Source: Candidatus Colwellbacteria bacterium CG10_big_fil_rev_8_21_14_0_10_41_28
Lineage (GTDB): Bacteria; Patescibacteriota; Minisyncoccia; UBA6257; Colwellbacteraceae
Direction of reading: 5' to 3'
Length of the DNA stretch: 64,000 bases
Assembly: GCA_002773755.1 (NCBI GenBank)
Contig: PFAG01000014.1
Coordinates: 6,634 to 70,633, forward strand
The notes beneath the pieces were generated by a model. The model did no database searches. It saw only the letters and a list, made by a program, of their open reading frames with translations, and had not been told where the DNA came from. Both the position numbers and the translations under genes were made by a program. This document shows positions 449 through 50,280 of this stretch, piece after piece. Each line of letters begins with the position of its first letter. The first letter of the stretch is position 1.

Positions 449-523
449 ATTGACACTCTCCCAATAATGATTAGTATGTAAAGTCCACTGGAAGGTCCAG
501 GGGGAGTACATTGGGAGGAAGCG

Positions 524-694
524 TTGAATGACTTCGAGGAGCAGGAGCTCCGCAAGGACAAAGGCAGAAGGCATCGCCCCGCCTCAAAGGTTCTGAACCC
601 AGATTTCTATCTGGGAGATGACACCCCAGATGATCAGGAGATGGCGCAGTCTCATTCCGAGAGCATCAGTTCTGATCTGGAATCCGCGGAGTAG
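524..694 (+). CDS. candidate small acidic protein (56 aa, TTG start) in GC-rich island
   Basis: GGGAGG 5 nt upstream of TTG; 56 codons, very acidic/hydrophilic product; no homology recognised; alternatively region is ncRNA/leader. Confidence 0.25.
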   Translation: MNDFEEQELRKDKGRRHRPASKVLNPDFYLGDDTPDDQEMAQSHSESISSDLESAE

Positions 695-708
695 TCGCTC
701 ACTTCGAA

Positions 709-751
709 GGGCCTCGTTTTGGAATTTCCAAAGCGAGGCCTTTCTTTTTTT
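709..751 (+). terminator. intrinsic terminator (long GC stem GGGCCTCG..CGAGGCC followed by T-run)
   Basis: Inverted repeat GGCCTCGTTTTGG / CCAAAGCGAGGCC then TTTCTTTTTTT. Confidence 0.55.
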
Positions 752-38444: not shown

Positions 38445-38484
38445 AAGTTAAGAGTCCCCACAGCGATTTCTTGCTGTGGGGACT
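38441..38484 (-). terminator. hairpin AGTCCCCACAGC-GATTTCTT-GCTGTGGGGACT downstream of minus-strand small ORF
   Basis: 12-bp perfect stem; on minus strand followed by CTTAACTTTTAT. Confidence 0.45.
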
Positions 38485-38520
38485 CAGAATACAAGGAGAG
38501 ACGAACTCTCCGGCTTGAGG

Positions 38521-38652
38521 TTCAGGACTTTCTGATAACTCGCAGTGTGCGAGTGTTCCGATCTCGCTGGCACATGTACGCGAGCATCCACCCGATGCCA
38601 ATGAGGCACAGGACGGTTAGAACGATGACGTTGACGAGGCCGGGATCAATCA
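38521..38652 (-). CDS. 43-aa small membrane peptide (MIDPGLVNVIVLTVLCLIGIGWMLAYMCQRDRNTRTLRVIRKS)
   Basis: GGGAGG 6 nt upstream of ATG; single TM helix plus Arg-rich tail; below the 60-aa ORF-track cutoff; GC-rich island. Confidence 0.4.
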
Positions 38653-38852
38653 TGATCTACCTCCCTCTGAATCATTCCTGGTGACTGCCAGGTCGAGCCC
38701 ATTGTCTCGGTTGAGACGAGCTTTTCTACGCACCAAATTTGTTGATATGCAGGAAAGCTCATCTCAAATACTGAACCTCTATGGAGTCAAAGAACTTACT
38801 AGAAATAGTGCAACATTCCTGAGTAGATGTCAAAAATAGAGGCTAATTCTAT

Positions 38853-38883: not shown

Positions 38884-39290
38884 GGTGAGGTAATTCAGGC
38901 AATAGCCTTCTTTTTTTACCCGATATTGCTCTGTAACGATTGATCTTTACCTAAAGGGTAATAATAAAAGAGGGAGGAAAGTCCGGACACCTACTTGGTT
39001 TTCCAGGTTAAAAAGGTAGCGGGTAATACCCGTCGTGCGAAAGCATAGGGGTGCGAGCAGAGACGCTGCAATATCGAGAGATACGCAGGAGCCCGATCCC
39101 AACGTAGACGGCTCAACTCAGTTATAGGGATAAAAGACTGAGGTGAAACGGCTAAATCCCTACCCAGGTGCAAGGCCGAGCTCCGACATTCGGAGAGTGC
39201 CGCTAGAACTATTGAGCAATCATTAGTCCAGATAGATTATTGCCACCTTCTTCGGAAGGGACAGAATCCGGCTTATGAATTGCCTCCAAA
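38884..39290 (+). ncRNA. rnpB: RNase P RNA (bacterial type A), ends approximate
   Basis: Universal P4 motifs GAGGAAAGTCCGG.. and ..ACAGAATCCGGCTTAT; GNRA-type elements; GC-rich relative to surroundings. Confidence 0.85.
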
Positions 39291-46952: not shown

Positions 46953-47060
46953 TTGACATATATATAGCAGTTGCTATAATACACTCGTTCATTAAAGACT
47001 CCGGTCTTTGATGGACATATGAAGAAATCGCCTCCGGGCGATTTTTTCACGTCTATAGAT
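46953..47060 (+). repeat. 108-bp module copy 1: consensus promoter (TTGACA-16-TATAAT) + ~60-nt hairpin RNA + intrinsic terminator
   Basis: 103/108 identical to 48715..48822; -35 46953-58, -10 46975-80, terminator AATCGCC-TCCGG-GCGATT + T6 ending 47047. Confidence 0.75.
46987..47048 (+). ncRNA. candidate small RNA (copy 1) with two stem-loops exposing CUCCGG / CCUCCGGG
   Basis: Predicted from promoter and terminator; hairpin 1 AAAGAC-UCCG-GUCUUU, hairpin 2 is the terminator. Confidence 0.45.
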
Positions 47061-48436: not shown

Positions 48437-48718
48437 ATGATGAAATTCTTATGGGTTTTAGTTGGATCGCTAATGCTCATCGTCATGGGCCTATATCTCA
48501 TGCCCTCAAAAACATCCGCTCCAGTAACTCCATATATGGACTTTGATTTTGGAAGTAAGATTGTATATACAACCGATCTCCAAACACCAAAAGAAGCTCT
48601 TATAGAACATTGCGACTTGAGAGGAGGAGTATTTAATGAGTGTGGCAGTATATGTGAGCCGGATGTATTTACTTGCGCCTCAGTATGCGCCTATACATGC
48701 GAGGGAATAGGGGGTTGA
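48437..48718 (+). CDS. small secreted/membrane-anchored Cys-rich protein (93 aa, 6 Cys in last 40 aa)
   Basis: N-terminal hydrophobic segment, C-terminal CxxxC-rich region; stop codon TGA lies inside the -35 of repeat copy 2. Confidence 0.45.
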   Translation: MMKFLWVLVGSLMLIVMGLYLMPSKTSAPVTPYMDFDFGSKIVYTTDLQTPKEALIEHCDLRGGVFNECGSICEPDVFTCASVCAYTCEGIGG

Positions 48719-48822
48719 CATATATATAATAATTGCTATAATATACTCGTTCATTAAAGACTCCGGTTTTTGATGGACATATGAAGAAATCGCCTCCGGG
48801 CGATTTTTTCACGTCTATAGAT
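48715..48822 (+). repeat. 108-bp module copy 2 (promoter + small RNA + terminator)
   Basis: Same architecture as 46953..47060; differences confined to promoter spacer, TSS region and one stem position (C->U keeps G-U pair). Confidence 0.75.
48749..48810 (+). ncRNA. candidate small RNA (copy 2)
   Basis: As copy 1. Confidence 0.45.
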
Positions 48823-48849
48823 TTATAAAACACATAGCCAAACGTGATT

Positions 48850-48885
48850 CAGCCCTGCTAATAGATTTCTCTAGAAGCAGGGCTG
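48850..48885. other. 10-bp perfect hairpin CAGCCCTGCT..AGCAGGGCTG with GATTTCT in loop, 24 nt downstream of minus-strand small ORF
   Basis: Inverted repeat seen directly; loop shares GATTTCT with hairpin at 38453..38484. Confidence 0.4.
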
Positions 48886-48911
48886 TTAGGTTGATGGCTC
48901 ATTCTCTTTGG

Positions 48912-49022
48912 TCACCTGCTACTGATCCTCTCGTAGAGGTATGCGATGGCAACTACTGCCAAGAGCAGAGTCAGCCCAGTCGCATACGAGGCCGGTGGTC
49001 TGGTCGCCAGAGTGAAGAACAT
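48912..49022 (-). CDS. 36-aa small membrane peptide (MFFTLATRPPASYATGLTLLLAVVAIAYLYERISSR)
   Basis: GGAGGAG 4-6 nt upstream of ATG; TM helix + charged tail; antisense to a weaker plus-strand ORF from the track. Confidence 0.35.
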   Translation of the reverse strand: MFFTLATRPPASYATGLTLLLAVVAIAYLYERISSR

Positions 49023-49167
49023 CAGACTCCTCCGATTGTACTGGACATGGGGCTTCCTACTCCCCATCTTAATTTGAAAATACAATTAATTAATACGTTA
49101 GTCAAAAAGAAAAAGTGGATGATATAATTTTCATATGGATGAAGTAGATTTTAAGAATAAGAAATAG

Positions 49168-50280
49168 ATGGATAGAAAGGACTTAATTCAAATAGCAGTA
49201 ATAGTTGGTGTAGCCATACTAGTTACAGTAGGTGTGGTTTCGTTCGTAGCTCTTAGTCAAAAAGAATCAACACCAATCAATCCTATTAATATTGGCTCGC
49301 AATCGAAAGCTGACCTATACACCCCAGCGATAGATATATCTTCACCGGATGGATTCATTAATACTGATCCAATTAACATAAGTGATCTAGTAGCCGACAG
49401 CAAAGTTGTTCTACTCGATATATGGACATACTCCTGCATCAACTGCCAGAGAACTCTTCCATATCTTAATGCTTGGCATGAAGAATATGCTGATGACGGA
49501 TTGGTAATAATAGGTCTTCACACACCTGAATTTGAATTTGAAAAAGATATAGCGAATGTTAGAAGGGCTGTAGAAAAATATGGTATAGAATATCCAGTTG
49601 TCCTAGACAACGACTATTCAACATGGAATGCATATGGAAATAGATATTGGCCACGTAAATATCTAATCGATATAGATGGATACGTTGTATATGATCACAT
49701 AGGAGAAGGGGGTTACGAAGAAACAGAAAAGGCCATCCAAGCTGCTCTAGCAGAAAGAGCCAAGAGATTAGGAGAGGAACTGGATGAAATGAGTGGAGCT
49801 AAGGTAGAAAATGCAGAAACAGTTGATCCAAGAACAGTTAAGACTCCAGAAACATATATTGGATACTTAAGAGTAAGTAACATGGCTAATCTTCCATCAG
49901 AAGAGTGCTTTGATTCAAGCTGTCAGCTCGATGCTCCAGATAGACTATCTCTCAATGATTTTGCTCTGGATGGTGTTTGGAAAATAGGTTCGGAGGGAGC
50001 AACCCTAGAAAGCACTACGGGTTCAATATTTATTAAGTTCTCGGCCAATAAGGCAAATCTAGTACTAACATCAGAAACATCTGTTCTGGGCCAAATCTAT
50101 TTAGATGGAGAATTAGTGGGCGAAGCTAGTAGTGGTTCAGACGTAGTGTCTGGAACAATTAAGGTAATGGATAATGATCTATATAATCTCATAGACCTAA
50201 GAGGGGAGCCTGGAGAACATCTTCTTGAGATCAGATTTCTTGAACCTGGAGTCTCAGCCTTTGCCTTTACTTTCGGATAA
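49168..50280 (+). CDS. membrane-anchored thioredoxin-fold (TlpA/redoxin family) protein with extra C-terminal domain
   Basis: N-terminal TM; redoxin region with CxxC (SCINCQ); ~170-aa C-terminal beta-rich domain of unknown function. Confidence 0.7.
   Translation: MDRKDLIQIAVIVGVAILVTVGVVSFVALSQKESTPINPINIGSQSKADLYTPAIDISSPDGFINTDPINISDLVADSKVVLLDIWTYSCINCQRTLPYLNAWHEEYADDGLVIIGLHTPEFEFEKDIANVRRAVEKYGIEYPVVLDNDYSTWNAYGNRYWPRKYLIDIDGYVVYDHIGEGGYEETEKAIQAALAERAKRLGEELDEMSGAKVENAETVDPRTVKTPETYIGYLRVSNMANLPSEECFDSSCQLDAPDRLSLNDFALDGVWKIGSEGATLESTTGSIFIKFSANKANLVLTSETSVLGQIYLDGELVGEASSGSDVVSGTIKVMDNDLYNLIDLRGEPGEHLLEIRFLEPGVSAFAFTFG

Follow-up and report, generated by a model that had tools for sequence, protein, structure and literature searches.

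A probable unannotated mini-gene for a putative single-pass membrane peptide in a Candidatus Colwellbacteria contig

Does a short, strongly folded, guanine-plus-cytosine (GC)-rich locus in the AT-rich genome of Candidatus Colwellbacteria bacterium CG10_big_fil_rev_8_21_14_0_10_41_28 (Patescibacteriota) contain a real gene, and what kind of product would it encode? The locus lies at about 49 kb of a 64,000-nucleotide stretch of contig PFAG01000014.1 (positions 6,634 to 70,633; assembly GCA_002773755.1), which was analyzed as a whole and is referred to here as the window; coordinates are those of the window unless stated otherwise. An initial annotation of the locus had pointed to a minus-strand open reading frame (ORF) of 36 amino acids (aa) at 49022..48912, preceded by GGAGGAG and followed by a perfect 10-bp hairpin at 48850..48885, and had suggested that this locus and another at 38.5 kb were two diverged members of one small-element family. 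Judging from sequence statistics, we find that the 36-aa mini-gene is probably real and unannotated. Tentatively, we read it as an orphan gene for a single-pass membrane peptide that would be type I toxin-like and controlled at the RNA level.

Structure of the 36-aa locus

The ORF, the GGAGGAG motif ahead of it and the hairpin were all present in the sequence as annotated, and further signals were predicted around them. The features of the locus are as follows.

48846..49067: GC-rich island of about 220 nucleotides (nt), 55 to 57% GC versus 39.9% for the window, from the composition profile and an island scan.
49077..49105, minus strand: promoter-like site TTGACT-17-TATTTT from a consensus scan, 9 of 12 matches, a consensus match alone.
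49099-49128, plus strand: promoter-like site of the thioredoxin-like gene, from the consensus scan.
49047..49067, minus strand: hairpin AUGGGG-AGUAGGAAG-CCCCAU in the 5' untranslated region, from minimum-free-energy folds.
49033..49027, minus strand: Shine-Dalgarno (SD) sequence GGAGGAG, 4 nt before the ATG, 6 nt from the GGAGG core.
49022..48912, minus strand: 36-aa ORF MFFTLATRPPASYATGLTLLLAVVAIAYLYERISSR, translated from the sequence, with a TGA stop at 48914..48912.
48850-48885, minus strand: 3' hairpin; its 10-bp stem is perfect, and an inner helix of 4 bp (UAGA/UCUA) carries the 4-nt loop.
48891..49127, plus strand: antisense 78-aa ORF, the NCBI hypothetical protein COT88_01560, judged spurious.

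The borders of the island matched those of the predicted transcript, from the 5' hairpin through the 3' hairpin, with a GC fraction of 0.54 in the 5' untranslated region and 0.56 in the ORF. That the GC-rich part coincides with the transcript and not with the promoter fits selection for a stable, structured messenger RNA (mRNA). From the promoter-like site, the mRNA was predicted to start near 49070, and since this start lies downstream of the alternative TTG start of a 57-aa extended ORF, the 36-aa reading was favored. The −35 hexamers of the peptide gene (TTGACT, minus strand) and of the thioredoxin-like gene (TAGTCA, plus strand) overlapped back to back within 49077-49128. The GGAGGAG motif was partly held in a weak predicted 6-bp hairpin, AUCGGA-GGAG-UCUGAU, extending over the SD and the AUG. 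As a whole, the island was predicted to fold at −87.5 kcal/mol (z = −3.2) on the minus strand and at −94.5 kcal/mol (z = −4.6) on the plus strand.

The peptide, of which PPASYATGLTLLLAVVAIAYLYER is a fragment, has one predicted membrane helix at about residues 13 to 30, with a hydropathy maximum of 2.04 in a 17-residue window. Its 15-residue stretch LTLLLAVVAIAYLYE contains 11 hydrophobic residues, and the C-terminus (YLYERISSR) is both aromatic and charged. The 3' hairpin had a predicted energy of −24.7 kcal/mol on the minus strand (z = −6.7 versus shuffles), and its apex reads A-GAAA-U in the mRNA sense, a GNRA tetraloop. Its distance from the ORF, given as 24 nt in the initial annotation, is 26 nt (48886-48911). 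The heptamer GATTTCT, which had been assigned to the hairpin loop, does lie at the apex (48864-48870), but only its middle four bases form the loop; the first two and the last belong to the stem. The antisense 78-aa ORF, already suspected of being spurious, does look spurious: it leaves the island and runs on into AT-rich sequence, the promoter of the following gene, its composition is unlike that of the host but non-periodic, and COT88_01560, the sole database protein known from the locus, is a singleton cluster with no homologue.

Tests against chance and comparison with host genes

The island was compared with dinucleotide shuffles that were scored for an SD, an ORF of at least 30 aa and a 17-residue window with a mean hydropathy of at least 2.0. 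This combination was found in 0.1% of the shuffles of the 49-kb island and in 0.05% of those of the island at 38.5 kb, which carries a 43-aa ORF (see below). Without the membrane criterion, an SD and an ORF of at least 30 aa were found in 12% of the 49-kb island shuffles, while any membrane-type ORF was present in <1% of island shuffles. Hydrophobic ORFs are easy chance products in AT-rich DNA and hard ones in GC-rich DNA.

The two ORFs, together with a 56-aa ORF from a third GC-rich island, were also set beside the genes of the host. The GC fractions at the first, second and third codon positions (GC1/GC2/GC3) were 0.47/0.53/0.69 for the 36-aa ORF, 0.53/0.40/0.72 for the 43-aa ORF at 38.5 kb and 0.62/0.36/0.64 for the 56-aa ORF; GC3 in 52 long host genes was 0.334 ± 0.031, with a maximum of 0.424. 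The difference in GC between codon positions was significant when the three island ORFs were taken together (combined chi-square p = 6e-5), with the order GC3 > GC1 > GC2 in the transmembrane peptides and in the pooled data, and with GC1 about equal to GC3 in the 56-aa ORF. Predicted duplexes of the SD with the anti-SD sequence reached −9.5 (36-aa), −12.7 (43-aa) and −10.2 kcal/mol (56-aa), and the best of the 52 host genes reached −8.4 kcal/mol. Just 7 of 52 long host ORFs had a GGAGG-like core when the best candidate start was chosen, and most host SDs were weak or absent. Both membrane peptides used a TGA stop, as compared with 4 of 42 host ORFs (p = 0.016). An alternative genetic code with TGA as a sense codon was rejected, as TGA terminates 4 of 42 long ORFs. 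These sequence features and their statistical improbability are observations. Since the shuffle test, the codon-position GC, the ribosome-binding sites, the stop codons and the spurious nature of the antisense ORF all agree, the mini-gene is probably real.

The 38.5-kb locus, a third island and the shared heptamer

As the initial annotation had stated, the 38.5-kb locus has the same architecture. We found a GC island, a small minus-strand ORF with a single predicted transmembrane segment, a strong SD, a 5' hairpin and a very strong 3' hairpin at both loci.

38450..38735, minus strand: first mini-peptide locus, a GC island, fold z = −7.8.
38653..38522, minus strand: 43-aa ORF MIDPGLVNVIVLTVLCLIGIGWMLAYMCQRDRNTRTLRVIRKS, GC3 0.72, predicted single transmembrane.
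38667..38660, minus strand: SD GAGGGAGG, duplex −12.7 kcal/mol.
38452-38485, minus strand: 13-bp 3' hairpin; a U-rich tail comes after it on this strand alone.

The 43-aa peptide ends in QRDRNTRTLRVIRKS, and its gene is divergent from the ribonuclease P (RNase P) RNA gene. That RNA was of class A (38887-39290, plus strand, 120.6 bits), with about 45 extra nt in the first hairpin after P1; large insertions are typical of the divergent RNase P RNAs of the Candidate Phyla Radiation. A 93-aa JGI gene call across the 38.5-kb island (window 38484-38762, minus strand; 601-879 in L145 and 818-1096 in L146) was rejected, with an in-frame TGA at 38646-38648; as the call must read this TGA as sense, it is apparently a genetic-code artifact of the caller. 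The 38.5-kb hairpin loop was also considered as a GNRA tetraloop, and this was rejected since the predicted minus-strand fold keeps an 8-nt loop.

What the two loci have in common at the sequence level was limited. The heptamer noted in both hairpins is indeed present at 38465-38471, at the apex of the 38452-38485 hairpin, so that both apices carry AGAAAUC in the mRNA sense, and the pattern CCC..GC and GC..GGG that had been described for the stems was recovered (..CCCTGC.. and ..CCCCACAGC..). The apex 7-mer was the sole sequence shared by the loci (p of about 0.04 by hairpin shuffling), and GATTTCT is common in the window, with 35 matches versus 22.6 expected. Comparison of the loci gave p = 0.14 for the DNA and p = 0.24 for the peptides, and BLASTP returned nothing at E ≤ 100. 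We also searched 79 kb of the 116.7-kb metagenomic contig k141_982717 (ENA ERZ27293400) and 130 other Patescibacteria loci, of which 80 were genome loci (obtained via BipA) and 50 were metagenome loci (via the thioredoxin-like neighbor). No further copies were found in either, nor was there any third membrane-peptide locus in the 79 kb. The initial annotation had itself tied the family claim to further copies and to a hairpin similarity that holds up in alignment, and by this standard the claim fails, while the individual mini-gene does not. The 38.5-kb locus appears best explained as a second gene that belongs to the same functional kind but is unrelated, and not as a diverged copy of the 49-kb locus.

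A third GC-rich island lies near the start of the window.

460..745, plus strand: third GC-rich island, unannotated, no family match.
451-456, plus strand: promoter box TTGACA.
513-519, plus strand: SD GGGAGGA, duplex −10.2 kcal/mol.
524..694, plus strand: 56-aa acidic, non-membrane ORF, GC3 0.64.
598-615, plus strand: internal hairpin with GATTTCT at its apex.
707-745, plus strand: strong terminator.

GATTTCT was thus found at a hairpin apex in all three islands (602, 38465 and 48864), always on the plus strand whichever the direction of the small ORF, and the three most stable local folds among the 36 GATTTCT sites in the 79 kb were exactly the three island sites. This coincidence may reflect chance or a shared signal. 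The intergenic GC islands of the window comprised two transfer RNAs (tRNAs), the RNase P RNA, the 38.5-kb and 49-kb loci and the 460-745 island. Signal recognition particle RNA, 6S RNA and transfer-messenger RNA (tmRNA) were rejected as readings of the islands, as there were no Rfam or ARAGORN matches. Just beyond the end of the window, a further GC-rich block (600 nt, up to 59% GC; contig 97776-98375; L137 4136-4735) included an intergenic GC-rich stretch of about 380 nt and the beginning of a GC-rich ORF of 150 aa, which had no Pfam match. No tmRNA or tRNA was found in this block, and the only Rfam signal was a sub-threshold L2-Alphaproteobacteria leader (20.8 bits versus a gathering score of 37.8).

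The convergent small RNA module and neighboring genes

A predicted small RNA (sRNA) gene points toward the 3' end of the peptide gene, and a second copy of it lies elsewhere in the window.

48715..48811, plus strand: sRNA module copy 2, convergent with the peptide gene, a candidate regulator only.
48715-48742, plus strand: promoter of copy 2, a perfect TTGACA-16-TGnTATAAT.
48749-48811, plus strand: copy 2 RNA of about 63 nt, with two 13-bp hairpins, each UCCG-capped, the second an intrinsic terminator (48782-48811).
46953..47049, plus strand: sRNA module copy 1, sharing 95% identity with copy 2 across 108 nt and flanked by the stop codon of BipA and the 3' end of a VanY-like gene.

Copy 2 was predicted to fold at −34.5 kcal/mol (z = −8.3), and the one stem difference between the copies, T at 48768 versus C at 47006, changes a G.U pair to G-C. 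The module had no Rfam match and no relatives in the 130 other loci. The 3' half of the sRNA (UGAAGAA-AUC-G-CCUCC) shows complementarity to a stretch of the 36-aa mRNA that covers the SD, the start codon and codons 2-3 (49013-49037); RNAduplex comparison with genomic controls (p = 0.05) was uninformative. In addition, the 7-nt repeats AGACTCC and TGGACAT are found in both the sRNA gene (48758 and 48774) and the translation start region (49024 and 49042), with a spacing of 9 versus 11 nt, and the alignment of the 5' half of the sRNA gave p = 0.09.

Upstream of copy 2, a 93-aa protein (called as 81 aa; 48437-48718, plus strand) has an N-terminal membrane or signal segment, a Cys-rich C-terminus (CDLRGGVFNECGSICEPDVFTCASVCAYTCEG) and no Pfam match, and its gene ends in a stop codon that shares bases with the −35 box of sRNA copy 2. 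Further away, upstream of the window (L135 3097-5843), a DUF8128 protein is followed by a VirD4/TraG-like coupling ATPase, and the sigma-70-like gene beside this pair is split into two ORFs in a sister assembly (L136).

Homology and comparative searches

The 57-aa extended ORF and the 43-aa peptide had no match in a word-indexed search of 5.8 billion clusters, including no match to themselves, and neither peptide can therefore have been called as a gene there. With phmmer, the 36-aa peptide gave 0 matches against 1.84 billion representatives, and it had no Pfam or NCBIfam match at E ≤ 10. In Pfam, NCBIfam, PHROGs, PADLOC and PDB sequences, the one signal was sub-threshold hydrophobic noise with the 43-aa peptide. 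Rfam 15 returned no match at the gathering score in the three unexplained islands and nothing credible at E ≤ 10 in 48600-49250.

The genome closest by BipA (82% identity) showed no synteny and lacked the islands, and the best metagenome thioredoxin-like neighbor was 50% identical. When blastn and tblastn searches of the 130 loci were run with the two peptide loci, the sRNA and the third island, only chance-level matches were obtained. The combination of a small ORF, an SD and a membrane segment was found 13 times in these loci versus 36 times in reversed-sequence controls, with 0 GC-enriched cases, and the island architecture is therefore not general. Exact-protein look-ups of four neighboring genes led only to contigs identical across the loci, with single nucleotide polymorphisms at 38758 and 47006, outside the ORFs. 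One chance match was obtained from plasmids by distant blastn and 0 matches from viral contigs with back-translated patterns, and flanking direct repeats, terminal repeats or target-site duplications were not found. Finally, a full-text literature search retrieved no paper mentioning both type I toxin-antitoxin systems and Patescibacteria.

Interpretation of the locus

Among the explanations considered, a type I toxin-like membrane peptide was the single most likely, ahead of a benign membrane protein, a non-coding RNA, a foreign relic and a repeat family, although our confidence in it is somewhat less than even. The promoter-like site at 49105-49077 would give rise to a GC-rich, strongly folded mRNA of about 225 nt, consisting of the 5' hairpin, the very strong SD, the 36-codon ORF and the stable 3' hairpin. 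Its product would be a single-pass membrane peptide, probably with the N-terminus out and the C-terminus in, ending in the aromatic, charged tail. Synthesis of this membrane-active peptide would be controlled by the mRNA's own structure, and the convergent 63-nt double-hairpin sRNA may add a further layer of control, its 3' half pairing with the mRNA from the SD through the AUG to codon 3. That the 36-aa gene is transcribed and translated, that its product enters the membrane and is toxic, and that the sRNA controls it are inferences. The protein features used by Fozo et al. 2010 to search for such genes, i.e., <60 aa, at least 10 hydrophobic residues per 15 and a bulky or charged C-terminus (PMC2887945), were found in both the 36-aa and the 43-aa peptide. 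The locus is probably a new orphan among small hydrophobic, perhaps toxin-like peptide genes.

A number of results weigh against this interpretation. No homologue of either peptide was found in any protein library searched, and the 36-aa peptide did not match the type I toxin families of Pfam (Hok/Gef, TisB, Ibs, Ldr and others) at E ≤ 10. As all assemblies covering the 49-kb locus (L001-L004) are identical there, they provide no evolutionary test of coding against RNA structure. The codon-position GC pattern was not significant for the 36-aa ORF alone (p = 0.14), and synonymous-codon permutation gave a weak excess of mRNA stability (z = −1.0), with a weak trend overall (z = −1.0 to −2.2). On the RNA side, there is no U-tract after the 48850-48885 hairpin on either strand, and the two RNAs would overlap only if the mRNA reads through this hairpin of its own. 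The complementarity of the sRNA to the region from the SD and AUG to codon 3 was marginal (p of about 0.02 to 0.045 in cofold and alignment tests), and no comparable match was found at the 38.5-kb locus. The consensus scan revealed no antisense promoter inside either peptide island, and no peptide gene lies beside sRNA copy 1 (46953-47049).

Comparison with known type I systems

In the par/Fst system of the Enterococcus faecalis plasmid pAD1, the antitoxin RNA II is convergent with the Fst mRNA, RNA I (PMC7472228). Loci of the par type have convergent promoters, a shared bidirectional terminator and the direct repeats DRa and DRb across the translation start, and Fst/Ldr peptides are recognized by a P/D/S/T-xxx-G motif in the membrane helix and by a conserved Trp at the point where this helix gives way to the charged tail (PMC7472228). 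The 49-kb locus resembles par/Fst, where an mRNA of about 230 nt encodes a peptide of about 33 aa that has one membrane helix and a charged C-terminus; further points of resemblance are a small RNA from a convergent promoter, an intramolecular stem-loop over the SD, and short direct DNA repeats (here AGACTCC and TGGACAT) that would give RNA complementarity over the translation start. Unlike Fst/Ldr, however, the 36-aa peptide matched no family model (Pfam, NCBIfam), lacks a Trp at the junction of the helix and charged tail, and has its S12-xxx-G16 before the helix and not inside it. The locus also differs from par in having separate terminators for the sRNA (48782-48811) and the mRNA (48850-48885), the former 38 nt beyond the mRNA 3' hairpin, in a sRNA complementarity that is statistically marginal, and in its host, a Patescibacterium and not a Firmicute.

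The Bacillus subtilis pairs txpA/RatA and bsrG/SR4 are type I systems whose convergent RNAs overlap by tens of nt at their 3' ends. As in these pairs, a gene for a small hydrophobic peptide stands tail-to-tail with a sRNA gene and the mRNA is highly structured; unlike in them, an overlap here needs read-through of the 48850-48885 hairpin, and there is no sequence similarity. The candidates of Fozo et al. 2010 (ZorO, YhzE; PMC2887945) likewise were short intergenic ORFs missed by annotation, encoding a predicted membrane segment and a C-terminus with bulky or charged residues, and with more than one such locus per genome. In contrast to those candidates, the two loci described here are neither tandem nor alike, and the sRNA is predicted from sequence.

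Alternative explanations

A less likely, though still plausible, alternative is that the gene encodes a real small membrane protein that is not a toxin, such as a benign accessory or regulatory subunit, with an mRNA structured only for stability. The coding evidence is the same for both readings, no antitoxin RNA is demonstrable, and the gene is divergent from, and shares its promoter region with, that of a membrane-anchored thioredoxin-like protein. AcrZ, MgtS, KdpF and CydX are non-toxin membrane proteins that are conserved within lineages and usually encoded in or near the operon of their partner; the 36-aa peptide is like them in that they have 30 to 50 aa and a single membrane helix and are often unannotated, but it is unlike them in being an orphan with a foreign-like composition. 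Accessory subunits of core complexes are usually conserved, whereas this peptide is absent from the nearest available genomes (82% BipA identity, no synteny). Its composition, TGA stop and SD are unlike those of host genes, and a benign role also fits poorly with two unrelated peptides having the same unusual RNA architecture.

It is unlikely that the island specifies a structured non-coding RNA, from one strand or the other, and that its ORF is fortuitous. In its plus-strand version, such an RNA would extend from the GAUUUCU-capped hairpin to the 49047-49067 hairpin, possibly as a read-through product of the strong sRNA promoter. The island itself contains no plus-strand promoter, however, and a strong terminator stands between the sRNA promoter and the island. 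The RNase P RNA and the tRNAs of this window are likewise islands of 53 to 57% GC, the plus-strand fold is slightly better than the minus-strand fold (−94.5, z = −4.6, versus −87.5, z = −3.2), all three islands have GATTTCT at a hairpin apex with a common chromosomal orientation, and the codon-position GC of the 36-aa ORF by itself was not significant. Yet the combined pattern was significant, no credible Rfam match was found up to E ≤ 10, and a membrane-type ORF behind a strong SD, which is very improbable in GC-rich sequence, is present in two islands.

We consider it decidedly unlikely that the locus was left over from a horizontal acquisition of GC-rich DNA and has no function, with the ORF and hairpins kept by chance. 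Although its GC3, SD strength and TGA stop are foreign-like, the locus was an orphan everywhere searched and one more GC-rich block, which bears a GC-rich ORF of 150 aa, is found close beyond the window, the 49-kb island is a complete unit (promoter-like site, 5' hairpin, well-spaced SD, ATG, ORF, stop and 3' hairpin), all three separate islands are complete units, and neither flanking target-site duplications nor phage or plasmid similarity was found. It is highly improbable, and largely refuted, that the 38.5-kb and 49-kb loci arose by divergence within a single family of small elements, repeated or mobile: apart from the shared architecture and apex AGAAAUC (p = 0.04 in the hairpin-only shuffle), there is no significant DNA or peptide similarity, 79 kb contained no further copies, the loci have no terminal repeats or target duplications, and GATTTCT is common in the genome.

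A bolder proposal, and a long shot, is that the islands (at least 3 in 64 kb) represent an unrecognized class of self-contained, GC-rich mini-genes with strong, foreign-like SDs and GATTTCT-apex hairpins in one chromosomal orientation, two of which would encode unrelated single-pass membrane peptides. They would then be the first type I toxin-like or selfish/mobile modules in Patescibacteria, with the duplicated sRNA as a regulator and the apex as a recognition signal.

Implications

What sets the 36-aa gene apart is its GC-island signature and its host among the Patescibacteria; its function is proposed from these features, and no relatives were found in the searches made here. As it comes from one strain and from statistics on its DNA alone, the finding is for now a lead and not a result. 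Candidate Phyla Radiation genomes are tiny and poorly annotated. If the 36-aa mini-gene and its 38.5-kb partner are real, annotation pipelines miss small membrane peptides here, and NCBI annotated a spurious antisense ORF in place of this one. GC-rich islands in an AT-rich genome would then be a simple heuristic for finding genes for small proteins as well as RNA genes, and these episymbiotic bacteria may possess membrane toxins under RNA control or small membrane effectors of other kinds.

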